Below, one piece after another: positions 7,492 to 49,610 of a stretch of 64,000 bases of DNA (position 1 is its first letter; every line of letters begins with the position of its first letter). The notes below the pieces were generated by a model, which was not told the DNA's origin, ran no database searches, and saw only the letters and a list, made by a program, of their open reading frames with translations. Source of the DNA: Clostridia bacterium (lineage in GTDB: Bacteria; Bacillota; Clostridia; Oscillospirales; Acutalibacteraceae); the NCBI GenBank assembly GCA_024404055.1, contig JAKSQS010000001.1, positions 3,404 to 67,403 of the forward strand, in the 5' to 3' direction. The position numbers and the translations under genes were made by a program.

Positions 7492-7586
7492 AATAATACA
7501 TTCCTTTCAATAAAAAGCTGTACCTGACTAACATCAAAGCAGAGCGGTTTCCTTTAAGCCGGAAAGCCGCCCTGTATTATCTTTTC

Positions 7587-11332: not shown

Positions 11333-11384
11333 TCCGCAAAACCTCCTTTAATGGAATTGCATATATACACCCGTATTTAGAATT

Positions 11385-11413
11385 ATAATACAACATTTTC
11401 GAGCTTTAGTCAA
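11385..11413 (-). promoter_or_regulatory. candidate internal promoter for the second ABC pair: TTGACT, 17 nt spacer, TATTAT
   Basis: The minus strand reads TTGACTaaagctcgaaaatgttgTATTATaat, immediately after the stop of the 11415-13409 gene. Confidence 0.45.
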
Positions 11414-11414
11414 C

Positions 11415-13409
11415 TCACTCTAATTCAAACGCGCCCGTATAAAGTCTGTAATACTGTCCCTTCTGTTCAATCAGCCTGTCATGGTCGCCGCGCTCTATAA
11501 TTCTTCCGTGGTCAAGCACCATGATAACATCTGAATTTCTGACCGTAGAAAGCCTGTGGGCAATAACAAACACCGTTCTGCCCTCCATAAGCTTATCCAT
11601 GCCGCGCTGAACGAGTGCTTCCGTTCTCGTGTCGATTGAAGAGGTTGCCTCGTCAAGAATCATAACCGGCGGATCCGCAACGGCTGCTCTCGCAATGGAT
11701 ATGAGCTGACGCTGACCCTGTGAAAGATTTGCACCGTTGGAGGTCAGCATGGTATTGTAGCCGTCCGGCAGACGTGTGATGAAATCATGCGCGTTTGCAA
11801 GCTTTGCCGCCGCTATGCATTCCTCGTCCGTCGCGTCCAGCTTGCCGTAACGGATGTTATCCATAACCGTTCCCGTAAACAGGTTTACATCCTGCAAAAC
11901 AATGCCGAGGCTTCGCCTTAAATCGGATTTTTTGATTTTGTTGATATTTATGCCGTCATAGCGGATTTTTCCGTCCGCAATATCGTAAAAGCGGTTGATA
12001 AGGTTTGTTATCGTGGTTTTACCTGCGCCGGTCGCGCCGACAAACGCGACCTTCTGTCCGGGCTTTGCGTAAAGAGTAATGTCGTGAAGCACAGGCTTAC
12101 CCTCAACATATTCAAAATCAACATGGTCAAGCACAACATCACCCTCAAGGCGGGTGTATGTAACGGTGCCGTCTGCCGCGTGCGGATGCTTCCACGCCCA
12201 GTGACCGGTACGCTCTTCACATTCAACGATTTTACCGTTTTCCTCACGGCAGTTGACAAGCTTTACATAACCCTCATCCGTTTCCGGCTTTTCATCTATA
12301 ATTGAGAAAATTCTCTGTGCGCCTGCCATAGCCATCGCTATGGAGTTTATCTGCTGTGAAGCCTGATTGACCTGTCCCGTGAACTGCTTACACATACCGA
12401 GATATGAAGCAACAACGGGAATTGCAAGCGGCGCAAGCACCGACCCGGTTGAGATTATATTTTCAATGGATATGTTCGGGATTTTTCCGTTTGAGCAAAT
12501 GAGTATACCGCCGACAAACGCGGTGCTGACATAAAGGAGGTTGCCGATATTATTCATAATCGGTCCGAAAATATTTGCAAAGGTGTGTGCGCTTTCGGCA
12601 TCCTTAAACAGCTCCTCATTAACCTTGTCAAAATCAGCCTTTGCCTGATTTTCATGGCAGAATACCTTGACAACCTTCTGACCGTTCATCATTTCTTCAA
12701 CATAGCCCTCAACCTTGCCGACGGCTCTCTGCTGCTTCATGAAGAACTTTGCGGAATTTCCGCCAACCTTTTTTGTCACATTTGTCATTATGATAACGCC
12801 GAAAATGACCACTATCATAAGTGAAACGCTGTAATAAATCATCACGCAAATGAGCACCGCAAGTGTTATGCAGGCTGAAAAAATGCTCGGAATGCCCTGT
12901 GAAATAAGCTGACGGAGAGTATCAATATCATTGGTGTAAAAGCTCATAATATCGCCGTGAGTATTCCTGTCAAAATACTTTATGGGCAAATCCTCCATCT
13001 TCTCAAACATACGCTTGCGCATATTGTCAAGAAAGCCCTGTGTTGTAAAGGCGAGAAGCTGCGCCTGTGTTGCGTTTGCCGCAATGCCCACAATAAACAG
13101 CCCTATCATCAGCGTCAGAATGTGAATAACATCGGGTCTGACTGTATTCCACGCTTCGGCATAGCTCATTGTTTTGCAAAGCTCAAGGCCCTTGACGATA
13201 TAGCTTGTTATGTTTTCAATATACACCGCCGGCATAACGCCGATAACCGCGTTTATGATTATGCAGATGAATATTCCGGCAAGCTTTCCCGGAAAATCGT
13301 GAAACAGTAATTTCAGAAGTCTGAAAAGCATTTTGAAGTCCATAACGGGCTTGCCCTTGGCGTTTAGCTTCACATTGCCGTTAGCCGGCATTTTCATTCC
13401 TCTTGCCAT
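11415..13409 (-). CDS. ABC exporter permease/ATPase, consensus-site subunit (paralog of 7587-9560)
   Basis: 664 aa. Walker A GATGAGKTT, deviant signature LSQGQRQ, VMILDEATSSID. The C-terminal NBD is near-identical in blocks to the 7587 protein (LMEGRTVFVIAHRLSTVRNSD..LYTGAFEL). Confidence 0.9.
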   Translation of the reverse strand: MARGMKMPANGNVKLNAKGKPVMDFKMLFRLLKLLFHDFPGKLAGIFICIIINAVIGVMPAVYIENITSYIVKGLELCKTMSYAEAWNTVRPDVIHILTLMIGLFIVGIAANATQAQLLAFTTQGFLDNMRKRMFEKMEDLPIKYFDRNTHGDIMSFYTNDIDTLRQLISQGIPSIFSACITLAVLICVMIYYSVSLMIVVIFGVIIMTNVTKKVGGNSAKFFMKQQRAVGKVEGYVEEMMNGQKVVKVFCHENQAKADFDKVNEELFKDAESAHTFANIFGPIMNNIGNLLYVSTAFVGGILICSNGKIPNISIENIISTGSVLAPLAIPVVASYLGMCKQFTGQVNQASQQINSIAMAMAGAQRIFSIIDEKPETDEGYVKLVNCREENGKIVECEERTGHWAWKHPHAADGTVTYTRLEGDVVLDHVDFEYVEGKPVLHDITLYAKPGQKVAFVGATGAGKTTITNLINRFYDIADGKIRYDGININKIKKSDLRRSLGIVLQDVNLFTGTVMDNIRYGKLDATDEECIAAAKLANAHDFITRLPDGYNTMLTSNGANLSQGQRQLISIARAAVADPPVMILDEATSSIDTRTEALVQRGMDKLMEGRTVFVIAHRLSTVRNSDVIMVLDHGRIIERGDHDRLIEQKGQYYRLYTGAFELE

Positions 13410-15145
13410 TATTCATCACCTGCCTTGTTCTGCGAATAATATACCTCTTTGTATATTTCATTGGTTTTAAGCAGCTCATCATGCGTTCCCACCGCGTCTA
13501 TACAGCCGTTTTCCATAACAACTATCATATCCGCGTCCTGCACGGAGGATATTCTCTGTGCGATGATAATTTTCGTCGTGCCGGGAATTTCCTCTCTGAA
13601 CGCCTTTCTGATAAGCGCGTCAGTATGCGTATCAACCGCCGATGTGGAGTCGTCAAGAATAAGTATTTTCGGCTTTTTAAGAAGCGCGCGTGCAATACAT
13701 ATACGCTGTTTCTGTCCGCCGGAAACATTCGCGCCGCCCTGCTCGATAAACCTGTCATACTTTTCGGGATGCGCCTTTATAAATTCATCCGCCTGTGCAA
13801 GGGCGCATATTCTCTGAAGCTCATCATCATCCGCATTTTCATCGCCCCAGCGGAGATTTTCCTTCACCGTGCCGCTGAAAAGCACATTTTTCTGAAGCAC
13901 CACGGCAACCTGATTGCGAAGAGCCTTGAGCGAATAATCGCGCACATCGATTCCGCCGACCTTAACACTGCCGTCCGTCACATCGTAAAGACGGGAGATG
14001 AGCTGAATAAGGCTGCTTTTGCCGGAGCCCGTACCGCCGATAATTCCAACCGTCTGCCCGGAGGAAATGTGCAGATTGATATTTTCAAGAGCGTTCTTTT
14101 CCGCGCTTTTTGAATACTTGAAATTAACATTTTCAAAATCCACACTGCCGTCGGGACCCTCTGTAACGGCGTTTTCTTTTTCTTTTATATCGCTTTCCTC
14201 GTCAAGCACCTCACATATACGCTTCATGGAGGCAACGGACATTGTTACCATAACAAAAATCATGGAAAGCATCATAAGAGACATCAGAATCTGCATGGAA
14301 TATGTAATCATGCTTGAAAGAGTGCCTACATCAAGATATTCGCCGCCGAGACTTACAACAAGCTTGGAGCAGAAGAAGGAAATGAGCAGCATAGAGGTAT
14401 ACATACAGCTTTGCATAAGCGGACTGTTGAACGCAAGTATGCGTTCGCACACCGTAAAGTCGTGCCGAAGCTCCTCACTCGCGGCGCCGAATTTCTTTTT
14501 CTCATAGTCCTCTCTTACAAAGCTTTTTACAACTCTCATGCCCTTGATGTTTTCCTGCACGGAATTGTTGAGCTTATCGTATTTTTTGAAAACCGCACGG
14601 AATCTCGGCATGGCAAGACACGCCACAAGTCCGAGACCGAAAGCAAGCACGGGAATAATACAGATGAATATCCATGCAAGCTTTTTGCCCACAACAAACG
14701 CCATAACCGCCGCAACAGTCAGCATAAGCGGCGCTCTGACAGCGGTTCTGATAATCATCATAAACGACATCTGCACATTGTTAACATCCGTTGTCAGACG
14801 GGTGACAAGGGACGATGTGCTGAATTTATCTATATTTGAAAACGAAAAGCCCTGAACCTTATAAAACAGGTCGTGACGCAGATTTTTCGCATACCCCGAT
14901 GAAGCCGTGGCGCAGGTTCTGCCTGCCGCAGCACCGAAGGACAGGGAAACGAGAGCCATAGCCACAAGCAGAACACCGTATTTTGTTATCTGCGACATGG
15001 AACAGCCTGCCTCAATGGAATTTATCAGCCTTGCCGTAATAAGCGGAATTATGCATTCACAGCACACCTCGCCTATCATAAGCAGCGGCGTTATCAGCGT
15101 TTGTTTTTTATACTCCCTTATGCCGGAAGCAAGTTTTTTTATCAC
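13409..15145 (-). CDS. ABC exporter permease/ATPase, degenerate-site subunit (paralog of 9560-11332)
   Basis: 578 aa with a GTG start after GAGGTGGA. Walker A GGTGSGKSS, signature VSGGQKQR, ILILDDSTSAVD. Confidence 0.9.
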   Translation of the reverse strand: MIKKLASGIREYKKQTLITPLLMIGEVCCECIIPLITARLINSIEAGCSMSQITKYGVLLVAMALVSLSFGAAAGRTCATASSGYAKNLRHDLFYKVQGFSFSNIDKFSTSSLVTRLTTDVNNVQMSFMMIIRTAVRAPLMLTVAAVMAFVVGKKLAWIFICIIPVLAFGLGLVACLAMPRFRAVFKKYDKLNNSVQENIKGMRVVKSFVREDYEKKKFGAASEELRHDFTVCERILAFNSPLMQSCMYTSMLLISFFCSKLVVSLGGEYLDVGTLSSMITYSMQILMSLMMLSMIFVMVTMSVASMKRICEVLDEESDIKEKENAVTEGPDGSVDFENVNFKYSKSAEKNALENINLHISSGQTVGIIGGTGSGKSSLIQLISRLYDVTDGSVKVGGIDVRDYSLKALRNQVAVVLQKNVLFSGTVKENLRWGDENADDDELQRICALAQADEFIKAHPEKYDRFIEQGGANVSGGQKQRICIARALLKKPKILILDDSTSAVDTHTDALIRKAFREEIPGTTKIIIAQRISSVQDADMIVVMENGCIDAVGTHDELLKTNEIYKEVYYSQNKAGDE

Positions 15146-19379: not shown

Positions 19380-21467
19380 TTATTTTATAATGCCGAAATG
19401 TCTGCCCAGCCAGTACATCATCATATAATCCGCACCCTTTTCACAGGAGGTACTGTTTCCGCCGTCCAGATTGAAAACGCCGTAGCCGCACCGCGCAAAC
19501 GGTCTTTCATCCCATGCAAGCGGCTTTGTAATGCGTATGCTTTCGCCCCATTTCAGCGGAGTTTCGTCAAACTCTATTTCTCTGCGGCGGCTGTTTATCA
19601 TCTTCAAGTCAACAAAATCAAGCGGATAATCACGCAGAACCTTAACCACCGTATCCACATCACAGGGCTTGCCCGTAAACGCACTGTAAATAAAGCCGTA
19701 AAGCGGATTGATTTCTATTTTTTCATATTCGTAGTGAGAAGCAAGACCCATGAGCAGATAATTTTTCACCGCCGGGTCATCCTCAAGGCGGAGAATCGTC
19801 ACGCTGTTGAGCATACCCAAAAGGTCATCAATATGGCACGAATGGGCATCGTCACGCTTGTGATAAGCCGCGTTGATAAGAAAATGGTGCTCTTTAATAA
19901 GCTCTCTGTATCTGTTCTGATACTTTTCGTCACCCGTCATATGATAGGCAACCTTTAAAAATCCGAGCATTTGCAGGGAATTAACACCCTTTTCCCACAT
20001 CCACATACTGTCGTGGTTGAGTGCGTCGGGATTCCAGCACGCCCATGTTGTCGGAGTACCGTCAAAGTCCACAAGATAACCGTTGTTGTCAAGTATATGG
20101 TCAACTATGTCCTTGACAGCCTCACGGATTTCAGCCTTTTCCGCTTCATCCGCCACAAGGTCATAATAAACGGACATACCGTAAAAATGCCCCGTCATTT
20201 CATCGCTGGAGGTTTCACCGAGCCATTCGTAGGTTCCGTCAGAGCTGCGGTGCCATTCAGCCCACATTTCCTGCTGTTCAAGTCCCTTTCCCCAGTCCTC
20301 TTCATCGGGGAAGCGCACCGCTCTTGCGGTAAAGCCCTTGATTTCCGGTGCTTTCATCAAAAACAGCATTGCCCTCATGCTTCTCCTTGCCGCTTCAAGT
20401 GCACGGCTGTCACCTGTTTCCTTATACCAGAAGCACAGAGCGGAAAGGTATATCTGCGTCCACAGTCCGTCGTTATCCGTTATATTGGAAACGCTGCCTT
20501 CTTCATTGGTTTCGTTTTTTATGCCGGAAATACCCGTCACATAGCCGAGCTTTCTGACCATGTATTTTTCGGTCATGTTGAAGAAATATTCGCTCTTTTC
20601 TTCAAGCGTCATTTCCTTTTCGGTTGTTACGACAATGCCGCCCTCACTGCCCGTATAAAGCGCGCCGTCCTTTTCTGCCGTGGCATAAACATCAGGCGAA
20701 CACGCGTAACGGGTGGCAGGCAGATACTTTTTCTCTCCGTCCTTTATCAGCACCGCGCCCGCGTCAATACCGGCAAGGATGCTGCCGTCGGCGCAGACGG
20801 TGACGGAATAAACGCTTTCGTCTATAAGCGCGCTTATCTGCTTTCTTGAATACCAGCCGCTTTTATAGTCATAAATGAAAAGTCCCTCCTTTGCTCCGAC
20901 CCAAAGGTAGCCCACCTTGTCAAACGCAATGGCGGTAACGCATATGTCGGGCATATCGGAATGCTCGGGGAAAATGTTTCTCCATGTTCTGCGCTTGCCC
21001 TCCATGCGCTGTATGCAGCGGTTGTTGGCGGCGCAGAGCTTTCCGTCGCCTGCCGCAAGGAAGCAGGCATATTGCTCCGTATACTGGAAAACCTCAAAGC
21101 TGCCGTTTTGTTCAATATAAAGACAGCTTTCAGTCAGCACATAAACCGTTGTGTCACAGACTATCGCCTTAATGTCGGATGAAAACTCACAAATCTTTTC
21201 CGCTCCGTTTTCCGTGACAATGTAAAGCTCTTTTCCGCAGGAGGCGAAAACTCTGCCGTTTCCGTCCGCAAATACTCTGTCAAAAATCCTGTCGGCGCAA
21301 AGTGCGCTCACTTTTTTGTTTTCGCAGCGGAAAAGTCCCTTGTCCGTGCAGGCATAAATAACGCCGTTTTCCGCAGCGGCAAGGCTTTTCACCGTTGCGT
21401 CAATGCGTATTTTTTCGCATACTCTCTGATTGTATTTTCCTGTTATAAGAGTATCGGTGTATTTCAT
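19380..21467 (-). CDS. hypothetical 695-aa protein: N-terminal beta-propeller-like repeats, C-terminal helical (possibly alpha/alpha-toroid) region
   Basis: Long ORF in an operon context, with GGAAGG 7 nt before the ATG. No signal peptide. The N-terminal half has repeated short G-rich blocks (GVIYACTDKGLF, GRVFASCGKELY, GYLWVGAKEGLFIY). The C-terminal half is rich in W/Y helices. No family recognised with certainty. Confidence 0.6.
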   Translation of the reverse strand: MKYTDTLITGKYNQRVCEKIRIDATVKSLAAAENGVIYACTDKGLFRCENKKVSALCADRIFDRVFADGNGRVFASCGKELYIVTENGAEKICEFSSDIKAIVCDTTVYVLTESCLYIEQNGSFEVFQYTEQYACFLAAGDGKLCAANNRCIQRMEGKRRTWRNIFPEHSDMPDICVTAIAFDKVGYLWVGAKEGLFIYDYKSGWYSRKQISALIDESVYSVTVCADGSILAGIDAGAVLIKDGEKKYLPATRYACSPDVYATAEKDGALYTGSEGGIVVTTEKEMTLEEKSEYFFNMTEKYMVRKLGYVTGISGIKNETNEEGSVSNITDNDGLWTQIYLSALCFWYKETGDSRALEAARRSMRAMLFLMKAPEIKGFTARAVRFPDEEDWGKGLEQQEMWAEWHRSSDGTYEWLGETSSDEMTGHFYGMSVYYDLVADEAEKAEIREAVKDIVDHILDNNGYLVDFDGTPTTWACWNPDALNHDSMWMWEKGVNSLQMLGFLKVAYHMTGDEKYQNRYRELIKEHHFLINAAYHKRDDAHSCHIDDLLGMLNSVTILRLEDDPAVKNYLLMGLASHYEYEKIEINPLYGFIYSAFTGKPCDVDTVVKVLRDYPLDFVDLKMINSRRREIEFDETPLKWGESIRITKPLAWDERPFARCGYGVFNLDGGNSTSCEKGADYMMMYWLGRHFGIIK

Positions 21468-24133: not shown

Positions 24134-25663
24134 ATGAAAAAACTTATCGCGATTGTATTGTGCATATTGACAGCCGTATCATGTACGGCGTTTTCCTTCG
24201 CGGCAGAGGAAGAATGCACCTGCACTCATACGCCTGTTGTCACCGTTCGCGGCTTCGGCTCGCTTATGGAGGTTGAAAACGGCAGCGGAGAATATACGGG
24301 TATGTTCTCATACGACAAGGACGAGGCTCTTGCCTTTGCGAAAGAAGAAGTAAAAAAGCTTGTTGACATTGCGCTGAAAAAGGATACCGGCACATTTGTT
24401 TCCGAGTTTTATAACACTCTCGATTTCTTCCTTGGGGCTCTGCGGTGCGACCTGAACGGGAACAGCGTGAAGACCGTTCGCGCTCTCGGGTGTGACGAGC
24501 TGAAAAAGGATAAACACAAGGGCGATGATTTGCCGTCGGTCAGCCGCGGAATTGAAGGCGATGACTATGTTTTTGAATATGATTTCAGGCTTGACCCTCT
24601 TGAAAACGCGGATTTGCTTTATGAATTTATAGAGGGCGTCAAGGCTCTTACAAGGCACGGCAAGGTAACTGTTGTGGCTCACAGTGAGGGTACCTGTGTA
24701 ACGGGTGCTTATCTTGTGAAATACGGCACAAAAAGCGTGAATAAGGTTATTTTTGTCGGCGCGGCAGTGAACGGTATTTCCCTTATCGGCAACGCTTTTA
24801 CAAAAAACATTTCACTTGACGGCAGGGCGGACGCGCTTGAGCAGTTTGCCGCAACCGCTTTGGGCTTTGACGGCGTGAACGAATTTATTAACCTGCTGAT
24901 TTCCGCGCTGAACAAGGCTCACATCCTCGGCGTTGTGACAGACGCGCTGGATATTCTGCTTGACAGCACCATTGACGGGCTTTACAGGGATTACCTTGTG
25001 GATATGTTTGCGACCATGCCCGGACTCTGGTCGTTTGTGCCGGATGAATATTATGAAAACGCAAAAGCCGTGATGTTCGGCACAGATGAAAAATATGACG
25101 CGCTGTGCGAAAAGCTGGATAACTACCATTATACCGTTCAGAACAAAATAAACAGCGTGTTTGAAAAGGCAAAGGAGGACGGCACGGCGGTCGCATTCTG
25201 CGGCGGCTACGGCATAAGCTCCATACCCGTGGCAGGTGAAGCACCGGTAAACAGTGATTTTCTTATTGACACAAAATACACATCCTTCGGTGCGACAACG
25301 GCTCTTTTCGGTGAAAAGCTTGAAAATACCGGCGGTGAATACGCTTCACCCGACGGAATTATTGATGCGTCTACCTGCCTTTTCCCGGAATATACATGGT
25401 TTGCCAAATATCAGAGCCATAACAATTTTTGCGAACCGTTCAGACAGTTCATCAAATGGCTTATTGACTTTGACGGTCAGCCCACTGTCAATTCGGATGC
25501 AGCATATCCGCAGTTTTTAACCTGTGACGGACACAAAAAGCTTGTTGCCGTCAATGCGGATGACGATATTCTCAATCAGGGAAGCTTTGCAGAAAGATTT
25601 GTTCGTGCTGTAATGAAGCTTGTTGAATTTGCGATTTCAAAAATAATGACACTGTTTGCATAA
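24134..25663 (+). CDS. secreted lipase/esterase-like alpha/beta hydrolase
   Basis: Signal peptide MKKLIAIVLCILTAVSCTAFSFA. Nucleophile elbow VVAHSEGT, preceded by a VTVRGFGS block. 509 aa. Confidence 0.55.
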   Translation: MKKLIAIVLCILTAVSCTAFSFAAEEECTCTHTPVVTVRGFGSLMEVENGSGEYTGMFSYDKDEALAFAKEEVKKLVDIALKKDTGTFVSEFYNTLDFFLGALRCDLNGNSVKTVRALGCDELKKDKHKGDDLPSVSRGIEGDDYVFEYDFRLDPLENADLLYEFIEGVKALTRHGKVTVVAHSEGTCVTGAYLVKYGTKSVNKVIFVGAAVNGISLIGNAFTKNISLDGRADALEQFAATALGFDGVNEFINLLISALNKAHILGVVTDALDILLDSTIDGLYRDYLVDMFATMPGLWSFVPDEYYENAKAVMFGTDEKYDALCEKLDNYHYTVQNKINSVFEKAKEDGTAVAFCGGYGISSIPVAGEAPVNSDFLIDTKYTSFGATTALFGEKLENTGGEYASPDGIIDASTCLFPEYTWFAKYQSHNNFCEPFRQFIKWLIDFDGQPTVNSDAAYPQFLTCDGHKKLVAVNADDDILNQGSFAERFVRAVMKLVEFAISKIMTLFA

Positions 25664-25949: not shown

Positions 25950-25978
25950 TTGAATTTTCTTTTCTGCGGATGTATAAT
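25950..25978 (+). promoter_or_regulatory. atp operon promoter: TTGAAT, 17 nt spacer, TATAAT
   Basis: aTTGAATtttcttttctgcggatgTATAATaca, about 35 nt upstream of atpB. Confidence 0.6.
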
Positions 25979-26013: not shown

Positions 26014-26856
26014 ATGCGACAGTTGAGCAAAAAGCAAAAAATACGCAGCGGCGTGCTTTTTATTCTTATAGTGGCTGCGCTTCTTGCCGGTATTTTTCTT
26101 ACCGGTAGCAAGCACGGTGAGAGTGAATCCATACGGGAAGTTATGCAGGACGCTGTGCTTCACGAAAGCGCGAAAATAAATCTTTTCGGGCTGAAAGAGG
26201 TAAACCCGGCAGTCATAAGCGCGTTTGCGGTTACGGGAATATTTCTTGTTTTCGCCCTTGTTGTCAGAATTTTTGTTATACCGAAATTCAAAGAAATTCC
26301 GGGAAAATTTCAGCTTTTGCTTGAGCAGGGCGTGGGACTTTTTGATTCTCTTGCAAAATCCAACAGTCCGCACAGAAATAAATTTCTCGGCGGCTATGTT
26401 TTCACGGCAGGTGCATATATTTTTGTCGGAACCCTGTTTGAGCTTTTCGGTGTTCAGGCGGTAACAACCTCGGGCGCATCCGTTTCTCTCCCCGCTCCGC
26501 TTGCGGATATCAACGGCGCGATAGGTATGGGCGTTTTCTCCTACCTGATAATCATGTCGGGCGCGGTGAGCGAGCACGGAATAAAAGGCATCGGAAAAGC
26601 ACTGAAGGACTTTTCGCTTCCCATTTCAATGAGCTTCCGTCTGTTCGGCGCACTGCTAAGCGGTGCTCTTGTGACGGAGCTTGTGTATCACTATTTATCG
26701 CTGTCGTTCGTTCTTCCGATTTTTGTCGGAGTAATGTTCACTCTGCTTCACGCACTGATACAGGCATATGTTCTGACGATGCTGACAGCACTGTTCTACG
26801 GTGAAATGAGCGAGCCTGCGGTCAAAAAAACTAAAAAATTAAAAAAGAAAGCTTAA
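26014..26856 (+). CDS. atpB: F-type ATP synthase Fo subunit a
   Basis: Polytopic protein with the essential Arg block ISMSFRLFGALLSG. First gene of the operon. The ATG at 26014 sits only 1 nt after AAAGGAG, so the TTG at 26023 (10-nt spacing) may be the real start. Confidence 0.88.
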   Translation: MRQLSKKQKIRSGVLFILIVAALLAGIFLTGSKHGESESIREVMQDAVLHESAKINLFGLKEVNPAVISAFAVTGIFLVFALVVRIFVIPKFKEIPGKFQLLLEQGVGLFDSLAKSNSPHRNKFLGGYVFTAGAYIFVGTLFELFGVQAVTTSGASVSLPAPLADINGAIGMGVFSYLIIMSGAVSEHGIKGIGKALKDFSLPISMSFRLFGALLSGALVTELVYHYLSLSFVLPIFVGVMFTLLHALIQAYVLTMLTALFYGEMSEPAVKKTKKLKKKA

Positions 26857-26874
26857 TTTACGGAGGAAATCAAA

Positions 26875-27279
26875 ATGAAAAAAACATTATCAGCAGTTAT
26901 ATCGGTTGTTATCCTTGTTCTTACGGTAAGTCTTGCAGTTATACCGGCACTCGCTGCAAACGAAGCACCGGTTGATGTTGCCGCTCCCGTTGCCGCAGCG
27001 TCAGACGAATTGTCCGAAACGGGAAAGGTTGAGGAATTTAAAGCGGAAGATGAATTAAAGAGCACAAAAGCCATCGCGGCTGCAATCATCATCGCGGTGG
27101 TTGCAACTGCCGGTGCCATCGGTATGGCAATTGCAATAGTTAAATCCGTCGGCGGCATATCCCGTCAGCCTGAGGCAGCAGGCAACATCCGTACCACGCT
27201 TATGCTCGGTCTTGTGTTTATCGAAACCTGTATAATTTACGCGCTTATCGTCGCTATACTTGTAATCTTTGTTCTTTAA
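26875..27279 (+). CDS. atpE: F-type ATP synthase Fo subunit c with a ~65-aa N-terminal extension
   Basis: The C-terminal 70 aa form a canonical c hairpin: ATAGAIGMAIA .. SRQPE .. LVFIETCIIYALIVA. The ATG at 26875 follows ACGGAGGAA. The ORF is 134 aa, against roughly 70-90 for a typical c subunit. Confidence 0.88.
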   Translation: MKKTLSAVISVVILVLTVSLAVIPALAANEAPVDVAAPVAAASDELSETGKVEEFKAEDELKSTKAIAAAIIIAVVATAGAIGMAIAIVKSVGGISRQPEAAGNIRTTLMLGLVFIETCIIYALIVAILVIFVL

Positions 27280-27297
27280 TTAAAGGAGGCGTGAAAA

Positions 27298-27783
27298 ATG
27301 CCCTTGAATATTGACTGGCAGCAGATACTTCTGCATCTGTTCAATGTTGCTCTGCTTTTTGCCATCCTTTATTTTCTGCTTTACAAGCCCGTGCATAAAT
27401 TCATGGACGAAAGAGCCGAAAAATATGAAAAAATGAAGAATGACACGGAAAACAGACTTGCCGAGGCTGAAAAAACAAAAGCCGAATATGAAAAACAGCT
27501 TGCCCGTGCAAACGCCGAAATAGACGAGCTGAAAGCGAAGGCAAGAAGCGACATGGCAAAGGCGGCAGATGCAAGCCGTCTGAATGCCGAAAACGAAGCG
27601 AAAAATATTATCAGTGCGGCGCGAACGGGTGCCGAAAGTGAAAAGAAGAAAATTATCGACGAGGCTCGCGGCGAAATCGGCGATATAATTGCGTCTGCGG
27701 CTCAGAAGCTTGTGAGTGAAAGCACAGCCGCGGCATATGACGAATTTTTGACGGCGGCGGAGGGAAGTGACACCGATGAGTGA
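27298..27783 (+). CDS. atpF: F-type ATP synthase Fo subunit b
   Basis: 161 aa with a single N-terminal TM helix and then a long charged A/E/K-rich helix. RBS AAAGGAGG. Confidence 0.88.
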
Positions 27784-29533
27784 AAATAAAAAAGCTCTCA
27801 CGGCTGTTATTTATTCCGACGCACCGCCGACGGAAAAACAGAAAAACAGCTTTACGGCGTTTCTTTCAAAAAGATACGGCAGAGAGGTTGTTCTGAATTG
27901 GGAAAAAAGTGATAAATACCCCGGTGGTTTTTTGCTTGATGCCGGTGAAGAGGTTTTTGACTGGACACCCGCCGGAAGACTGAGCCAGTTTACATCTGCC
28001 GTAAAAGAGGCGGCAGTCTCCGGCAAGGGTACTATTTCACTTTTAAAGGACACCGTTAAAAACTGGGTTCCGAAGGCGTATGCACAGCAGATAGGCAAGG
28101 TAGTTTCCGTAGGTGACGGAATTGCCGCCGTATCGGGACTTGAAAGCGCGGCATACGGTGAAATTCTGCTTTTTGAGGGCGGCATAAAGGGTATGGTTCA
28201 GAATCTTTCCGAAAAGGAAATCGGCTGTATTCTTTTTGACAGCGACGGAGAGGTATGCGCCGGCAGCAGTGTAAGGCGCAGCGGAAAAACGGCAGGTGTA
28301 CCTGTCGGAGAAGGCTTTATCGGCAGGGTTGTAAACGCCCTCGGAGAGCCTATTGACGGTCTTGGCGAAATCGAAGCGGTTTCATACCGTCCCGTTGAAA
28401 ATCCCGCGCCCGGTATAATTGAAAGAAAAAGCGTTTTCAGACCGCTTGAAACAGGCATCATAGCCATAGACTCCATGTTCCCGATAGGCAGGGGGCAGCG
28501 TGAGCTGATAATCGGTGACAGGCAGACGGGAAAAACCGCCATTGCCCTTGACACGATTATCAATCAGAAGAACAAGGATGTCATATGCATTTATGTTTCC
28601 GTAGGTCAGAAGTCAAGCAGCGTGGCACAGCTTGTTTCCACGCTTAAAAAATACGGTGCCATGGATTACACAGTGGTGCTCCATGCCTCGGCAAGCGACA
28701 GTGCACCCATGCAGTATATAGCCCCCTATGCCGGCTGTGCCCTCGGTGAATATTTCATGGATAAGGGAAGGGATGTTCTGATTATTTATGACGACCTTTC
28801 AAAGCACGCGGTGGCATACAGGGCACTGAGCCTGCTTTTAGGCCGTTCCCCGGGTCGTGAAGCATTTCCGGGCGATGTATTTTATCTTCATTCCCGTCTG
28901 CTTGAACGCTCCGCGCAGTTAAGCGACGCAAACGGCGGCGGCAGCATGACGGCACTGCCCATAGTTGAAACGCAGGGCGGCGACGTTTCGGCATATATCC
29001 CCACAAACATTATATCCATAACAGACGGTCAGATTTTCCTTGAAAGTCAGCTTTTCTATTCGGGTCAGCGTCCGGCGGTAAATGTCGGTCTTTCCGTTTC
29101 CCGTGTGGGCGGAGACGCGCAGACAAAGGCAATGAAAAAAGCCGCCGGAACAATAAGGCTTGACCTTGCACAATACCGTGAGATGGAGGTTTTCACCCAG
29201 TTTTCAAGCGACCTTGACGAAGCAACAAAGAAAAGGCTTGTTTACGGACAGGGACTTATGCGTATGCTGCGCCAGAAGCAGTACAGCCCATACACACAGT
29301 GTGAGCAGGTGCTCCTGCTCGTTTCGGCGCTGTCGCACGCTATGCAGGATATACCTGTTGACGGCGTTGCCGATTTTATTCACGGTCTTCTTGCGGCATT
29401 CAGAAGCGAAAAGCCGTCACTGTGCAAAAGGATAAGCGAAACAGGCAAGCTCACCGATGAAGACAGAAAAGAAGCGGCAGACTTTGCCAAAGGCTTTGCG
29501 GCGGAATACGCTGTTCGGGAGGAGCTGTTGTAA
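27776..29533 (+). CDS. atpA: F1 subunit alpha with an N-terminal delta(OSCP) C-terminal-domain-like extension
   Basis: Alpha core: [15 protein letters not shown], Walker A GDRQTGKT, and so on. About 85 extra N-terminal residues resemble the delta C-terminal domain. The ATG at 27776 overlaps the atpF stop (ATGAGTGA). The track's GTG at 27767 is also possible. Confidence 0.85.
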
Positions 29534-30445
29534 TTGCCAAATGCAAAGGAAATAAAGGGTCGAATCAACAGTATAAAAGAAACGCGAAAAATCACAAACG
29601 CCATGTACCTTATTTCTTCAAATAAGCTGCGCAAGGCGGAGGAGGAGCTGAAAAAGACCCGACCGTATTTTAACGCGGTGCAAAAGGAAATAAAAAGGGT
29701 TTTCTGTGTGGATGAAAATATTGAAAACAAATATTTTTATCCGCCTGACGGGAATCCCGATTTGGATGGCGCATACGGTTATCTTGTCATAACTGCGGAC
29801 AAGGGACTTGCCGGTGCTTACAATCAGAATATTCTGAAAGAAACGGTTCGTCTTATGCAAAAGCACAGCGGCTTCAATGACGAGCTGTATGTGGTGGGTG
29901 AATACGGCAGACATTATTTCACCTCCCACGGGATAAATATAGAAAAAAGCTTTCTTTACACCGCGCAGAATCCCACAATGAGACGCGCAAGAGAAATATG
30001 TTATACCCTGCTTGACAGGTATGAACAGGGAAAGCTTGTTAAAATTTATATAATATACACCGATTACAGCGGCTCCATGAGCACGAGGGTATGCTCAACA
30101 AGGCTTCTTCCGTTTCAGCGTGCAAAATTTATTTCCGGCGATGAAGAACAGGAGGAGCTTAACCGGGCGGATTTTGAATTTGAGCCGTCACTCGGCAAGG
30201 TGCTTGACAACATTGTACCGGGATATATCACCGGTTTTATTTACAGTGCCCTTGTTGACAGCTTCTGCTCGGAGCAGAACGCGAGAATGACGGCTATGGA
30301 CAGCGCGAACACAAACGCGGACGAAATTCTTTCTCAGCTTTCCATGCAGTACAACCATGTCCGCCAGGGCGCGATAACACAGGAAATCACAGAGGTATCA
30401 TCGGGTGCGAGAAGTCGCAGAGCAAAAAACGAAAGGGAGGCATAA
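29534..30445 (+). CDS. atpG: F1 subunit gamma
   Basis: N-terminus IKGRINSIKETRKITNAMYLISS and C-terminus ITQEITEVSSGA are typical of gamma. The TTG start directly follows the atpA stop, with GGGAGGAG upstream. Confidence 0.9.
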   Translation: MPNAKEIKGRINSIKETRKITNAMYLISSNKLRKAEEELKKTRPYFNAVQKEIKRVFCVDENIENKYFYPPDGNPDLDGAYGYLVITADKGLAGAYNQNILKETVRLMQKHSGFNDELYVVGEYGRHYFTSHGINIEKSFLYTAQNPTMRRAREICYTLLDRYEQGKLVKIYIIYTDYSGSMSTRVCSTRLLPFQRAKFISGDEEQEELNRADFEFEPSLGKVLDNIVPGYITGFIYSALVDSFCSEQNARMTAMDSANTNADEILSQLSMQYNHVRQGAITQEITEVSSGARSRRAKNEREA

Positions 30446-31851
<1,406 letters not shown>

Positions 31852-31852
<1 letters not shown>

Positions 31853-32262
31853 TGAACACATTTTATCTTGAAATTCTTTCCGCCGAAAGACCGTTTTTTG
31901 AGGGTGAATGTGAATCGCTGACAATTCCCACTCCTGACGGGCTTTACGGAATACTTGCAAATCATGTAAATGCCGTTTACGCTGTATCACCGGGAGAGCT
32001 CACCTACCGTGAGCCGGACGGAGAAAATGTTATCGCATTTTCAAGCTACGGCATTGCAAAGGTTGAAAACAACCGTGTGCTTGTACTTGTCGAAACGGTT
32101 GAATTGCCCGAGGAAATAGACGAAATCCGCGCATTGCAGGCGGCGCACGACGCAAAGGAGGCTTTGCTGCAAAAGCAGAGCATTATCTCCTTTAAGGTTG
32201 CCGAATCCCAGCTTGCAAGGTCGTTAAGCAGAATAAAAGTAAAAAAAGACGGTATGTTGTAA
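31852..32262 (+). CDS. atpC: F1 subunit epsilon
   Basis: About 136 aa with an N-terminal beta-sandwich-type sequence and a C-terminal helical hairpin. The ATG overlaps the atpD stop (TGATG). Confidence 0.85.
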
Positions 32263-32265
32263 AAT

Positions 32266-32931
32266 ATGAATAATACAGTAAGAGATATTTTGAAAAATTC
32301 GCTTCTTGCCGCCTTCGGTCTGTTTTTGTTCGCGTTCGGTGTGTATCTCACAATACAGGCAGACATCGGCGTTGCGCCGTGGGACGCGTTTAATTTGGGA
32401 CTTTCCTCCACATTCGGCATAAAATACGGCACGGCAAGCATTATTGTTTCATTTGTAATCGTTGTTATTGATGTGCTGCTCAAGGAGCAGATAGGAATAG
32501 GGATGTTTCTCGATGCGGTGCTTGTGGGCAAAAGCGTGGATTTTTTCAGTTGGACGGGACTTGTTTCCAAACAGGAAAAGCTTGTTTTCAGTCTGCCGGT
32601 TATGGCGGCGGGAATAATCATCATGGGCTTTTCGCAGTTTCTTTATATGAAGGCTTCTTTGGGCTGCGGACCGAGGGACACACTGCTTGTCGGCTTGAAA
32701 AGAAGGGCAAAAAAAATACCCATAGGGCTTATCAGCGTGTGTATACTTGCCATTGTCACACTTGCCGGCTATCTGCTCGGCGGATCGATAGGCATAGGCA
32801 CGGTTATTTGCGCCTTGCTTACAGGTCCGGTTATGCAGCTTGATTTTAAAATCGTTAAATTTGACCCGACGGTACTCAAACATCAAAATATCATCGAATC
32901 ATTTAAGGTATTTGTTCACAGAACACAATAA
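32266..32931 (+). CDS. membrane protein, YczE/YitT-like
   Basis: 221 aa with about 6 TM helices. Blocks IQADIGVAPWDAFNLGL and LGCGPRDTLLVGL recall the YczE-type family. Confidence 0.45.
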   Translation: MNNTVRDILKNSLLAAFGLFLFAFGVYLTIQADIGVAPWDAFNLGLSSTFGIKYGTASIIVSFVIVVIDVLLKEQIGIGMFLDAVLVGKSVDFFSWTGLVSKQEKLVFSLPVMAAGIIIMGFSQFLYMKASLGCGPRDTLLVGLKRRAKKIPIGLISVCILAIVTLAGYLLGGSIGIGTVICALLTGPVMQLDFKIVKFDPTVLKHQNIIESFKVFVHRTQ

Positions 32932-33981: not shown

Positions 33982-35697
33982 TTACACCATCCCCGTGTTT
34001 TTTATACTCACATACAATGACATATTCTGTACGCAAAAGGTATATTCGTCTGCTGCAAAGCCGCCTGTCAGGAAAAAGATTTTCTCTTTGTGACAAGGGC
34101 TGTCCGAAAACAACTGTGCCGTGTTTTCGATAATCGGCAGAATAAATTTCACTCCGTCCGCTTTTTTATTCAATTTCACATTTATCTTAATGCCGTCTGG
34201 AGAAAAAATATATTCGGCTTTTACAATCGGTGCGTCCTGCTCACTTTCAAAATCCGCAAGAAGGACAAGGCGTGAGCAAGCAGTTACACAAATAGCGTCC
34301 CCTGTCTTTTCAGCTTTTATCGTCGCGCCCATGTCAAAACATGAGGCGTATTTTTTTCCGTTTTTTTCATATTCAACCCTCGGAATAAGGGATGAATGCC
34401 GCGTTTCTCCTTCATAATTCTGCATATTCAGCGGCTCTGTCCGCCTGTAATCATACACACTGCCGGCAATAACCGCGCCCATATCCGCGTGATAAAGCAT
34501 TGACAGACTGCCGCCGGAGGCGTGACTTGCGCCTTTTATATAATTTCCCGGTGTAAAATCATACCCTGTCACCGTGGCATACCAGTCTGCGCAGCGGATT
34601 TTATAGGTATCAAGCTCCGGAAAATATTTTATATATGTCCCCTGTCCTTCACATGGCAAAGCATATTTTCCGTTATATTTGCCTATTCCTTCGATGACAG
34701 CATCCGTCAGTGAACAGGCATGACAAAAGGTATGATGAACACATGGCTTCTGCCCGTTTACGGCGTAATATCTGCCGCCTTGCAGTGCCCCGTCCACAGT
34801 GCATTTTTCAAGCAGTGTAAAGTTTCTTTTTGCTGCTTCATAAAAAACCGGGTCAAGCCCTCCGAGCTGCGTAAACACTCCGGTGCATCCGTCTGCCGTT
34901 CGGCTGCCGTAATATGTCCACTTGTTGTTTCTTGCGCCAAAGGAGTTATCCCACGCGCCGTCAGGCATCATAAATTCAAGCAGTATTTTTGCGTATTTAC
35001 AAAGCTTTTCAAGTGCAGCGAAATCACCGAGAATATCTGCCGCGGCAATAAGGCAGGGCAGGGATTCCTCAGCATTATAGCCTATATCAATGGCAGCGCA
35101 GCCCTTCGCAGTTGTAATATCATGCGGCTGACCTTCCCCGCGAAGAAGTCCGTTTTGAGTGAAATTCTCCATGCAGTAAGACAGCAGCACCCTTGAAAGG
35201 CGTGTATATTCTTCATTTCCCTTATAGCTGCCGTACATAGCGTCTGCGCAAGCCGCCGCAGCGTAATAATTTATATACGAGTGAAATCCCGGTCTGATAT
35301 TTTCAAATACCCACTGTGAGGATGAATCAAGGCAGACCTCAAGATTACGCCTGAAGTCTGCCGGAATAATATTTCTGAAATAATGCAGCGTTTTATACAG
35401 GTTGATAACGGAAAAAACGGTTATTCCCTTCCATTCGCTCCCGAAATCGTTTTTCACGGCTCCGTCCGGGCAGGTCAGCTTTTCTCTGAATCTCATAACC
35501 CTTTCAGCCGCTTTGAGAAAATGTGCGTCCCCCGTCTTTGCATATGCAAAGGTCAGCGGATAAACCGCATTATCTGCCCTGCCGTGAGAAACACCGCAGC
35601 TTTCACAGCGGAATCCGCCATCCTCATTCTGCATTTTTACAAGATATTCGCACCATGAAAGAAGAAGCTTTTCGTATCTGTCCATATTACTGCTCAA
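33982..35697 (-). CDS. hypothetical 571-aa protein, possibly helical toroid plus beta-sandwich (polysaccharide-lyase/heparinase II-III-like architecture)
   Basis: Cytoplasmic, with no signal peptide. The N-terminal ~330 aa are helix-rich with W/Y/G repeats (NEDGGFRC.., MMPDGAWDNSFG). The C-terminal ~200 aa look like beta-strands and include a GASHASGGSLSMLYHADMG block. Family assignment is uncertain. Confidence 0.35.
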   Translation of the reverse strand: MSSNMDRYEKLLLSWCEYLVKMQNEDGGFRCESCGVSHGRADNAVYPLTFAYAKTGDAHFLKAAERVMRFREKLTCPDGAVKNDFGSEWKGITVFSVINLYKTLHYFRNIIPADFRRNLEVCLDSSSQWVFENIRPGFHSYINYYAAAACADAMYGSYKGNEEYTRLSRVLLSYCMENFTQNGLLRGEGQPHDITTAKGCAAIDIGYNAEESLPCLIAAADILGDFAALEKLCKYAKILLEFMMPDGAWDNSFGARNNKWTYYGSRTADGCTGVFTQLGGLDPVFYEAAKRNFTLLEKCTVDGALQGGRYYAVNGQKPCVHHTFCHACSLTDAVIEGIGKYNGKYALPCEGQGTYIKYFPELDTYKIRCADWYATVTGYDFTPGNYIKGASHASGGSLSMLYHADMGAVIAGSVYDYRRTEPLNMQNYEGETRHSSLIPRVEYEKNGKKYASCFDMGATIKAEKTGDAICVTACSRLVLLADFESEQDAPIVKAEYIFSPDGIKINVKLNKKADGVKFILPIIENTAQLFSDSPCHKEKIFFLTGGFAADEYTFCVQNMSLYVSIKNTGMV

Positions 35698-43107: not shown

Positions 43108-43299
43108 TATATTAACCTCCGTTTCCGAATTCTGTTCAAAAAATGTTAATAATGTGTTAACAGCGTGTTATTATATAATATGTTTTTTTAAGATATTATA
43201 TAGTTTAGCATATTGCGGCTGTTTTTTCAAGACACCGTTTTCATAAGTCTAAATTCTGAAAGGAAAAACGCTTCTTTACCGAAGCGTCGGGTAAAAAAC

Positions 43300-46200
43300 A
43301 TGAATAAAAAAATTATTTCGGCATTTATGGCGGTGCTTATGTGCGCATCCGTTGTTTTTTCGGTGCCGTTTTATTCTTTTGCCGAACAAATAAAAGCAGA
43401 TGCTCTTTCCGCTGCGCTGGAAGCCGTACCCGATGTGAGCACATGGGGGCAGTATATTGATACCTCCGCGCTTGAAAAAGCCGTAAAGGAGGCAGACCGC
43501 TGTCTGGCAGATACATCGGGTGAGATTACGCAGCAGGAAATAGACAATGCCGTTAATGCAATCAACAATGCAGTCGCCGCACTTGAAAAGCATACGACCG
43601 GAATAACCCTCAACCCCACTTCTTTAAATATTGCGACAGGCGAAACCGATGTCATAAAGACCGTTCTCACCCCGGCAGACGGTGCTGACACGGTCAAGTG
43701 GAGCGTTTCCTCGCCCGCCGTTAAAATAGTCGACCAATCAAACTATGGCTGTCAGCTTAAGGCGGAGTCGTATAGTGCCTCACCCGTCACGGTAACGGCA
43801 AGCTGCAACGGCAAAACCGTCTCATGCAAAATAAATATACTTAATCCTGCAAAAACCGCTGTTGTTACCGTATCGCCGACATCCGCATACAGAACAAAAA
43901 CGGCACAGGCAGCCGCCAAGGCGTACGGTGCTGACGGGAATCTCTCCACGGACAGCATTTCATGGCAGTGGACAAGCAGTGACCCCGCCGTTGCAGATAT
44001 AACCTCCGTAACAGGTGTTATTACCTGTAAAAAAACCGGGCACTGCACAATTACCGCAACGGGTATTTTCAACGGCGGCACTGTTAAGGGCAGCACTGAA
44101 TTTTATGTAAATGATTTTACACCAATCAAATCTCTCACTCCTGTCAACACGCTGATTTCAAAAACAATGACCATGGTGGAAGGCACCTCGCTTTCATATG
44201 AGGTACGCATTTCCGACGGCGCAACAATAAAGGAGCTTGCATGGGGCACAACAAATAAGTCCGTTCTTACAGTAAGCAATCCGAAGGTGAACGGCTATGT
44301 CGCAAGCGCAACAATAAAGGCGGTCAAAAGCGGAAAAGCCACACTTACAATAAAAGCAACCGACGGAAGCGATATAACCAGAAACATTTCCGTAACGGTT
44401 CTGCCGAAGGTAAGCTCAATAAAGCTTGATGCATCTGTGCTTGTGCTTAATCCCGGGCAGACCAAAAAGCTTTCCGCGACAATATCACCTTCAAACGCCG
44501 GCAATCAGAACATCAACTGGTCAAGCTCGGACAAATCGGTGTGCTCGGTAGATTATAAGGGAAATCTTACCGCAAAAGCAGTCGGTGTATGCAACATATT
44601 TGCCCAGGCTGCGGACGGCTCCGGCAAAAAAGCAATATGCTGCGTAAGGGTAGCTGATCCTTCCGCGCAGATAATTATTTCAAAAAAATCCGTTTCAATG
44701 AAGACGGGCAGCACGGTTTCCGTCACGGCAACCGTAAAAACGGTAACCGGCAAAAGCTATGCCACCACAAATGAGGTAAACTGGAAAAGCTCGAAAACGG
44801 CAGTCGCCTCCGTTTCATCCTCCGGCAAAATCACCGCGAAAGCGGCAGGCACGGCAACGATCACTGCTTATGCAAAGGATAACGCTGATATAAAAACAAC
44901 CTGCAAGGTCACGGTTGTAACACCCGTCACGGGGTTGAAGCTCAATTACACTTCTTTTAAAATCGGTGTCGGCAGCGCAAAAACCGTTACTCCCGCGGTT
45001 CTGCCGGAAAACGCCTCCGACAGGTCGGTTACATGGACAAGCTCAAATAAAGCGGTTGCCACTGTATCATCAACAGGCACGGTCGCCGGCGTAAAGCCCG
45101 GCACCGCAACCGTAATCTGTAAAACCACAGACGGCGGTTTCACGGCAAAATGCACAGTCACGGTAATCAGTCCCGTCACATCCGTAAAGCTTTCATCCAC
45201 CTCGCTCAAAATATATACCGGCAGCTCAAAAACCATCACGGCAACCGTCTCACCCTCAACCGCAACGGATAAAAGTGTTACCTTTAAATCCTCTGATACA
45301 AAGATTGCCACCGTTTCGTCAACCGGCACGGTAAAGGGCATAAAAGCAGGCAGTGCCGTTATAACCGTTAAATCGGCAGACGGAAAATGCTCTGCGCAAT
45401 GTGCCGTAACAGTGCAGCAAAGGGTTACCGGCATAAATCTTGACGCGACAAAGGTCTGCTATATCGGTCAGGTATGCTCCCTGAACGCAACGGTTACTCC
45501 TGCCGACGCAAGCAACAAAAAGCTTATCTATGCAAGCTCAAACACATCGGTTGCCACAGTCACTGAAACCGGCTTTGTTACGGCAAAGAAAAAAGGCAGT
45601 ACTGCCGTCACTGTAAAAAGTGCGGACGGCGGTTACACAGCCACCTGCTTAATTACCGTAACACCAAAGGTCAGTGCAACCGGTTTCAAATTCAGTGTCA
45701 GTCAGAAATCACTTAAAACCGGTGAAAAATACACCTTAAAGCCCCTCTTCTCACCCTCTGATACCAGCGAAAAGGGCGTATCGTATAAATCGGATAATCC
45801 GGCTGTTGCCACAGTGAGCTCCGCGGGAAAAATCACAGCCAAAGGACCCGGCACCTGCACCGTTACGGGTATATCGGCAGACGGCGGCTTTGTTGCAAAA
45901 TGCAAGATTACCGTAACACAGCCTGTCACCGGCGTAAGCTTTCCTCTTTCCTCTTACAGGGTTGCCGCAGACAAATCAATTTCTCTCAAGCCCAATGTTC
46001 TTCCGGCAAATGCGTCAAACAAGTCCCTGAAATGGAAATCAAGCAATAAGGAAATCGCCACAGTAAGCTCCAAGGGCACTGTAAAAGGTATCAAAACCGG
46101 CACCTGCCAAATCACCTGTACCACGGCAGACGGCGGCTTTACCGCAACCTGCACCGTTGAGATTTACAAAGAAGTCACCGCAGTAAAGCTCACAAAAACC

Positions 46201-49588: not shown

Positions 49589-49610
49589 AAAACGAAAGGA
49601 AATACAAGCT

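Follow-up and report, generated by a model that had tools for sequence, protein, structure and literature searches.

In a 64,000-nucleotide stretch of Clostridia bacterium contig JAKSQS010000001.1 (GCA_024404055.1), hereafter called the window, whose numbering is used for all positions, the α-subunit gene of an F-type ATP synthase operon begins with the C-terminal domain of the δ-subunit. This open reading frame (ORF), here called X, is a genuine, conserved gene fusion of a δ C-terminal domain to a complete α-subunit. It has the layout of the natural truncated-δ–α fusion class, in which the δ C-terminal domain is followed by α in one ORF, and represents a further natural fusion, from an Oscillospiraceae-like lineage, of the kind noted in 2025 (PMC12229609). 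X has the same protein sequence as NCBI MCQ2461795.1, whose public annotation, 'F0F1 ATP synthase subunit alpha [Clostridia bacterium]', conceals the δ domain. By analogy with an engineered enzyme, the fusion may allow more than one peripheral stalk to be attached to each F1.

Domain organization of the fused subunit

Focusing on the N-terminal part of X, residues 2–75 match positions 97–171 of the 172-position Pfam OSCP profile PF00213 with 30.3 bits, above the gathering cut-off of 22.3; scanning the first 100 residues by themselves gives an expectation value (E) of 2e-8. The NCBIfam δ models match the same C-terminal positions, and HMMER aligns residues 12–74 of X with residues 111–173 of Escherichia coli δ (5t4o_L). 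No match to PF00213 profile positions 1–96 was found in X, which is not a complete δ-subunit. The remainder of the protein is covered by TIGR00962 at residues 86–579, with 736.2 bits against a cut-off of 484.45; as this match opens at profile position 7, the N-terminal helix of α is kept. The α part contains this helix, the beta-barrel, the α-type Walker A motif GDRQTGKT, which is invariant among the homologues, and the C-terminal domain.

The F-type ATP synthase operon occupies positions 26014–32262, with all of its genes on the forward strand, and the Pfam assignments give the order a, c, b, X, γ, β, ε. The TGA stop codon of b (27781–27783) lies beyond the ATG of X (27776) within the overlapping sequence ATGAGTGA. 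A Shine–Dalgarno sequence, GGAGGG, is located 11 nucleotides upstream of this ATG and just 2 nucleotides from an alternative GTG at 27767; because of this spacing ATG 27776 is the likely start of translation, and the start Met is matched by the equivalent Met at which the homologues begin.

An earlier reading of this DNA made from the letters alone (the sequence-only reading) had given the same gene order, had sized X at about 585 residues, had placed the beginning of α near residue 88 and had concluded that no room was left for a separate atpH between b and X. The Pfam assignments, the length of exactly 585 residues, the opening of the TIGR00962 match at residue 86 and the overlap of the b stop with the X start bear out each of these statements. 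It had further assigned the extra segment to the δ/OSCP C-terminal domain through an alignment by eye with E. coli δ; the profile search of the X N-terminus returned PF00213 above its gathering cut-off, HMMER reproduced the alignment against 5t4o_L and the fold comparison described below agrees. Its observation is thus confirmed and its interpretation is supported.

Predicted fold of the N-terminal domain

A model of residues 1–141 of X was calculated with AlphaFold2 from a 26-sequence alignment and was used for the Foldseek searches. Its predicted local distance difference test score (pLDDT) is 83–91 across residues 10–70, and the modelled secondary structure consists of a strand, a helix, three strands and a helix, followed by the linker, the N-terminal helix of α and the start of the beta-barrel. 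The pLDDT of the linker is around 50 (50–54). A full-length AlphaFold2 model, calculated from a shallow 20-sequence alignment, had a mean pLDDT of 54 and was left out of the fold search.

The best three matches of the model in the PDB were chains I, K and J of 9JC1, over about 135 columns, and these were followed by the C-terminal domains of δ, OSCP and mycobacterial b–δ, with root-mean-square deviations of 2–3 Å over 65–75 residues. A phmmer search of the PDB with residues 1–120 of X returned 9jc1_I as the sole match, colinear from residues 9–118 of X to residues 5–118 with two short gaps, and the whole of X aligns to the 9JC1 chain (residues 9–566 against 5–566). The sequence identity of the X δ domain to canonical δ C-terminal domains is low, at about 25–30%. 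Together, the profile matches and the model point to a δ/OSCP C-terminal domain of the b-binding type, and X is predicted to bind b.

Recurrence and conservation of the fusion

The N-terminal δ domain is present in all of the 120 closest database cluster representatives, which share 67–100% identity with X and were drawn from NCBI, ENA, JGI and Logan assemblies; the named relatives are, according to their sources, metagenome-assembled genomes (MAGs) of Oscillospiraceae or Clostridia. A metagenome scan using δ-domain-specific patterns gave 53 loci, mostly from human-gut, rumen and other animal samples as judged by the record names. A hidden Markov model (HMM) of δ finds the domain in 52 of these 53 loci, in the same ORF as α wherever the contig is long enough, and the complete fusion ORFs are 577–596 residues long. 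The a–c–b–X–γ–β–ε operon is also found in four species-representative genomes: a Mogibacterium sp. MAG (L001), a Clostridia MAG (L002), a Lachnospiraceae MAG (L003) and Candidatus Geddesella stercoravicola (L004). Over 25 diverse members, nine positions of the δ domain are invariant (A10, P18, Q22, F29, W42, F52, G57, D62 and R68), including the canonical motif of the δ C-terminal domain, and the length of the linker is nearly invariant in 26 diverse homologues. The fusion characterizes a large set of uncultured gut and rumen Clostridia and Oscillospiraceae, beyond a few entries, and this breadth is new with respect to the literature covered. A sequencing frameshift as the source of X is ruled out by the recurrence of the architecture in dozens of independent assemblies.

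A second scan, of a genome collection with a generic α pattern, requires a word of caution. Most of its matches covering query residues 1–140 were rejected, since they represent separate atpH and atpA genes in the same frame, as for example in Rhodobacteraceae. In many Alphaproteobacteria (L005–L031 and others, including Rhodobacteraceae and Sphingopyxis) atpH and atpA are separate, in the same frame and divided by a short spacer; because the two genes share a frame, tblastn aligns through the atpH stop codon and mimics a fusion. Such in-frame atpH/atpA pairs are a trap for automated surveys of δ–α fusions. Upon re-examination of the ORFs of these loci, the true truncated-δ–α fusions were L001–L004, and L038 proved to be a fusion of full-length δ to α. 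An exhaustive search of the representatives gave mainly N-terminal fragments from contig ends, and P0123, P0133, P0138 and P0181, which appeared as multi-stretch matches, were discarded as spurious repeat proteins.

Absence of the δ N-terminal domain from the window and of an internal start for a plain α-subunit

The δ HMM comprises 179 positions and was built from 26 free δ-subunits encoded upstream of α in ordinary loci; it was run with all filters disabled over the stop-to-stop segments of all six frames. Over the 64-kb window the sole significant match was X, at HMM positions 101–178, and no N-terminal domain was found. In six frames of L001–L004 the HMM likewise matched the fusion ORF only at C-terminal positions, with no N-terminal domain, and none was found in the forward-strand ORFs of the 52 metagenome loci. 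The positive controls, L007 and L039 with free δ and L038 with the full-length δ–α fusion, match positions 2–176. The δ N-terminal helical bundle, which the sequence-only reading had described as missing, is indeed absent from the window.

The survey of related loci suggested by that reading gave the same picture: no atpH lies between atpF and atpA in L001–L004 or in the 52 metagenome loci. As atpH is normally encoded at this site and is absent there in about 60 independent operons, a free δ-subunit encoded elsewhere in the genome is unlikely. A plain α-subunit produced by internal initiation is ruled out, because no in-frame ATG, GTG or TTG occurs in X between codons 54 and 139 and the α helix starts at about codon 86; a Met in the linker or helix-start region is seen in 22 of the 120 homologues, at no conserved position. 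No reading frame between b and X encodes a δ N-terminal domain. The three outcomes that the sequence-only reading had named as telling against itself, namely the lack of an OSCP match, an internal start, and a frameshift concealing a normal δ ORF, were all examined and none of them holds.

Proposed stalk stoichiometry

Normally, the N-terminal bundle of δ occupies the threefold axis of F1 and restricts the enzyme to a single stalk. Because this symmetry-breaking domain is gone and a docking domain is present on each α, up to three stators could bind: F1 would have one covalent b2-docking site on each of its three α-subunits, and with every stalk a separate a-subunit would be held against the c-ring. 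Working in reverse, the enzyme would pump more protons for each ATP. More protons per ATP would suit an energy-limited fermentative anaerobe of the gut or rumen. By analogy with an engineered Bacillus PS3 enzyme of the same design, the native enzyme would most likely assemble with two or three b2 stalks. In that work, Ueno and colleagues (2025, Nat Commun) deleted residues 2–104 of Bacillus PS3 δ and fused residues 105–178 to the N-terminus of α through a short linker (PMC12229609). The engineered fusion was enriched 2.2-fold in a and 1.8-fold in b over the wild type, its particles fell into cryo-electron microscopy (cryo-EM) classes having one, two or three b2 stalks, every stalk paired with a separate a on the c10 ring, its H+/ATP ratio was 5.8 compared with 3.0 for the wild type, and the equilibrium proton-motive force was halved (PMC12229609). 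The same authors pointed to natural fusions in atp operons, namely Acidaminococcus fermentans D2RLW6 together with G4Q3K6 and A0A1I2C5T3 (PMC12229609, Discussion and Supplementary Fig. 9), and predicted multi-stalk enzymes from them, with experimental verification awaited (PMC12229609); our full-text literature search found no later paper characterizing a natural fusion enzyme. Two stalks and two a-subunits do exist in natural F-type enzymes, judging by Chloroflexus (PMC12002316).

The sequence-only reading had regarded three docking domains facing a single expected stalk as a puzzle. Its first part stands, as each α does carry one such domain; for its second part the engineered enzyme, which binds up to three stalks, offers an experimental answer. 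A multi-stalk, high-H+/ATP enzyme is, by this analogy, the most likely mechanism for X and the one that we narrowly favour. The analysis shows the architecture, its conservation, the local absence of the N-terminal domain and the lack of an internal start; that b2 attaches to every fused domain, how many stalks form in vivo and what the cell gains are inferred.

Several points weigh against this assignment. The multi-stalk state is an analogy with a single engineered enzyme, thermophilic and over-expressed in E. coli, which pumped protons less than the wild type and gave triple-stalk particles only rarely in cryo-EM (PMC12229609). The c-subunit of the X operon bears an unusual, predicted exported N-terminal tail, which possibly touches the packing of a against the c-ring. 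Variants with two δ domains per α would provide six docking sites per F1, against one stalk per α, and the absence of a free δ was established within the 64-kb window. A bolder proposal is that a large, abundant clade of Oscillospiraceae-like gut and rumen Clostridia natively runs a threefold symmetric F-type enzyme with two or three b2–a modules and an H+/ATP ratio far above that of any measured natural enzyme, the fusion having co-evolved with the tailed c-subunit; this we put forward tentatively, doubting it a little more than we believe it.

Alternative explanations

The strongest competitor is an enzyme that retains a single stalk, the fusion replacing free δ for one b2 and the other two δ domains remaining idle for reasons of a and b supply, c-ring sterics or order of assembly. 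We regard this as possible but clearly less probable than several stalks. Canonical F-type enzymes have one stalk, many particles of the engineered enzyme showed one stalk only (PMC12229609), and, to judge by the variants with two δ domains, domains and stalks need not be equally numerous; the Shine–Dalgarno sequence of subunit a, which abuts its ATG, might very weakly hint at poor translation, although Shine–Dalgarno strengths were judged too weak a proxy for the a:b stoichiometry. However, making the engineered fusion alone raised the amounts of a and b about twofold (PMC12229609), and the use of a single site would not readily account for a loss of the N-terminal domain that is conserved over a large clade.

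It is improbable that the extension is not fused in the mature complex, being cleaved to yield a small δ-like protein and a normal α, or that a full-length δ encoded elsewhere caps F1. The search for δ was confined to the 64-kb window and the linker is predicted to be flexible (pLDDT of about 50), which would leave room for either route. Yet X contains no internal start codon, the conserved linker length speaks for a constraint of geometry and not for a spacer to be cleaved, atpH is absent between atpF and atpA in the window, in L001–L004 and in 52 of 52 metagenome loci, and the whole window encodes no δ N-terminal domain.

Just as improbable, or marginally more so, is a re-purposed δ domain that acts as a regulatory or auto-inhibitory appendage or binds a partner other than b, the stator being attached in some other way. 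Other lineage-specific extensions of α are regulatory, the mycobacterial α C-terminal extension being one example, and the identity of the domain to canonical δ C-terminal domains, about 25–30%, would also fit a new role. Nevertheless, the canonical δ C-terminal motif is kept, the fold matches b-binding δ domains at 2–3 Å, an ordinary b-subunit in need of a docking site is encoded directly upstream and is translationally coupled, and the operon offers no other candidate anchor.

An artefact, in which a frameshift, a mis-assembly or a mis-called start joined a truncated atpH to atpA, is effectively refuted, for although single odd database cases exist (P0064, b–δ domain–α; P0221, a chimera; and the metagenome loci L102 and L122, in which the truncated fusion ORF ends early), an ORF of 575–596 residues occurs in more than 150 independent NCBI, ENA, JGI and Logan sequences with δ-domain identities of 45–100%, and no frame encodes the missing N-terminal half of δ.

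Subunit c extension and δ-domain variants

The c-subunit of the window has an N-terminal extension of about 66 residues (positions 26875–27072), composed of a signal-peptide-like stretch ending in ALA|AN (..VIPALA|ANEAP) and an acidic, Ala-rich tail; its signal-peptide-like character predicts that the tail is exported. The Pfam match of this subunit covers the C-terminal part only (Table 1). Such an extension, 50–80 residues long with an A-x-A end and a tail rich in Ala, Glu and Asp, accompanies the truncated-δ–α fusion in every locus in which c is visible, and c is 112–148 residues long in the window, in L001–L004 and in about 40 metagenome loci with a visible upstream gene. In contrast, L038, with its full-length δ–α fusion, encodes an ordinary c of 72 residues. 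The c-subunit of the window contains E117–T118 and Y122, with Met at the hand-aligned equivalent of Ilyobacter tartaricus Gln32, a partial Na+ motif only.

The δ domain itself also varies. A tandem pair of δ C-terminal domains precedes α in the database proteins P0003–P0016 (669–677 residues) and in L003 (2162–4108; 648 residues), with the motif in both copies. These variants caution against reading a count of domains as a count of stalks. In L038, Pseudoflavonifractor phocaeensis NZ_JAUDDJ010000002.1, a full-length δ (HMM positions 2–176) is in frame with α in an ORF of 680 residues (6611–8653); found in one genome only, it may represent either an intermediate in evolution or an isolated oddity. 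In Clostridium sensu stricto the free δ carries two or three C-terminal domains in tandem after a normal N-terminal domain: P0143, P0296, P0300–P0310 and P0236 are 345–412 residues long, and P0297–P0299, P0303 and P0312–P0325 are 260–290 residues long, with C. argentinense, C. sulfidigenes and C. sartagoforme among the source names. A multi-domain δ of this kind may likewise be a natural means of providing one F1 with several sites for b2. Taken together, the tandem-domain fusions, L038 and the Clostridium multi-domain δ suggest that evolution has repeatedly altered how many b2 docking sites are present. The c extension, the two-domain variants, L038 and the Clostridium multi-domain δ are new with respect to the literature covered.

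Two further arrangements were observed. In P0343–P0352 (261–273 residues) the HMM scan shows an apparently duplicated N-terminal domain before a normal δ. P0064 (716 residues) combines b, a δ domain and α in a single ORF and, coming from one contig only, is probably a sequencing or calling error. Because the b stop and the X start overlap in the window (ATGAGTGA, 27776–27783), a one-nucleotide frameshift would yield a fusion of this type.

The operon and the rest of the window

The features of the operon are collected in Table 1. The b-subunit is of ordinary length (161 residues) and has no δ match. The site upstream of atpB is promoter-like, a consensus match alone, and is listed as a putative promoter.

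Table 1. Features of the atp operon, with the extended c genes of related genomes (numbered in their own records)
Feature	Position	Strand	Basis or remark
Promoter-like site TTGAAT-17-TATAAT (putative)	25950..25978	+	36 nucleotides upstream of atpB; best sigma-70 consensus match in the scanned region, 10/12 positions
Subunit a (atpB), 280 residues	26014..26856	+	Pfam ATP-synt_A, E = 1.1e-18
Subunit c (atpE), 134 residues	26875..27279	+	Pfam ATP-synt_C, residues 67–129 only
Subunit b (atpF), 161 residues, sole b gene	27298..27783	+	Pfam ATP-synt_B, residues 10–139, E = 4.8e-17
Shine–Dalgarno sequence GGAGGG for X	27759..27764	+	Read from the sequence
X, δ C-terminal domain–α fusion, 585 residues plus stop	27776..29533	+	Pfam, TIGR00962
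δ/OSCP C-terminal domain of X, residues 2–75	27779..28000	+	Pfam OSCP PF00213, AlphaFold2, Foldseek
Linker of X, about 10 residues, δ domain to α N-terminal helix	28001..28030	+	Low pLDDT, 50–54
Complete α of X, residues 86–579	28031..29512	+	TIGR00962; Pfam ATP-synt_ab_N, ATP-synt_ab, ATP-synt_ab_C
Subunit γ (atpG)	29534..30445	+	Pfam ATP-synt, E = 1.9e-88
Subunit β (atpD)	30449..31852	+	Pfam ATP-synt_ab, E = 6.9e-72
Subunit ε (atpC)	31849..32262	+	Pfam ATP-synt_DE_N and ATP-synt_DE
Extended c gene, L001	6097–6465		
Extended c gene, L002	6100–6489		
Extended c gene, L003	1255–1662		
Extended c gene, L004	6027–6500		

A multi-pass membrane protein of 221 residues without a Pfam match is encoded at 32266–32931 on the forward strand, beginning 4 nucleotides past the ε stop codon. 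As no terminator-like site separates this ORF from ε, it may be co-transcribed with the atp operon; no counterpart was found downstream of ε in the ORF lists of L001, L002 and L004.

The window is otherwise an ordinary chromosome segment of a saccharolytic anaerobe, with glycoside hydrolases, ABC transporters, arginine biosynthesis genes and tRNA synthetases, and no second ATPase or ion pump is encoded nearby. Four consecutive fused ABC exporter genes (ABC_membrane plus ABC_tran) at 7587–15145 on the reverse strand probably form two heterodimeric pairs. Adjacent class-I Glu/Gln-type tRNA synthetases (tRNA-synt_1c) with differing anticodon-binding domains are encoded at 56611–58266 and 58281–59921 on the forward strand, as is a large ORF of 1809 residues at 43213–48642. 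Pfam gave no match at E <= 1e-5 for the ORFs at 19380–21467 (reverse strand), 24134–25663 (forward), 33982–35697 (reverse) and 49563–52013 (forward), which encode 509–816 residues.

Implications

The H+/ATP ratio sets the minimum membrane potential for ATP synthesis and, to our knowledge, c-ring size was thought to be its sole tuner before 2025. Should the fusion enzymes of these very common anaerobes of gut and rumen indeed possess several stators, they would have the highest ratio of any natural ATP synthase known, estimates of energy yield in fermentative and Rnf-dependent metabolism would change, and natural templates would be available for the engineering goal of PMC12229609. Taken with the Clostridium multi-domain δ, such enzymes would make stator multiplicity, alongside c-ring size, a widely used evolutionary means of tuning the gear ratio in anaerobes. 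Specialists familiar with the 2025 papers will no longer find the idea surprising; the window and more than 150 related sequences provide concrete operons for testing it directly.

Comparison with known systems

The closest known system is the engineered Bacillus PS3 fusion, 9JC1, which like X consists of a δ C-terminal domain, a short linker and a full α and lacks the δ N-terminal domain. It is man-made, whereas X is natural; the identity of the δ domains is about 24–26%, and the linker region of X is three residues shorter. The X operon encodes an extended c and a full-length ε, whereas the engineered enzyme lacks the ε C-terminal domain. Multi-stalk assembly has been seen for 9JC1 only.

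Acidaminococcus fermentans is a Negativicute, unlike the relatives of X, which are named as Clostridia or Oscillospiraceae MAGs. Its fusion D2RLW6, as well as G4Q3K6 and A0A1I2C5T3, resembles X in being encoded in an atp operon and in having no δ N-terminal domain (PMC12229609).

In the F1Fo of Chloroflexus aurantiacus, two stalks and two a-subunits are held by a dimer of free δ (PMC12002316). Its δ C-terminal domain docks b canonically (PMC12002316) and was matched to X by Foldseek at rank 20. However, the extra stalk is gained through a dimer of free δ with a shortened N-terminal domain and not through fusion to α, and the maximum is two stalks, not three.

The mycobacterial b–δ fusion (e.g. 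7JG5 chain d) is likewise a covalent fusion of δ, located in the peripheral stalk, and its δ C-terminal domain matches X in both sequence and fold; its partner, however, is b rather than α, the δ N-terminal domain is kept and the enzyme has a single stalk. In V/A-type ATPases, two or three EG stalks are attached separately to the non-catalytic subunits, with the crown left free (PMC12002316), which is the arrangement proposed here for X. The stalk proteins of the V/A-type enzymes are unrelated, however, and a single a-subunit is present, so that their extra stalks leave the ion/ATP ratio unchanged.

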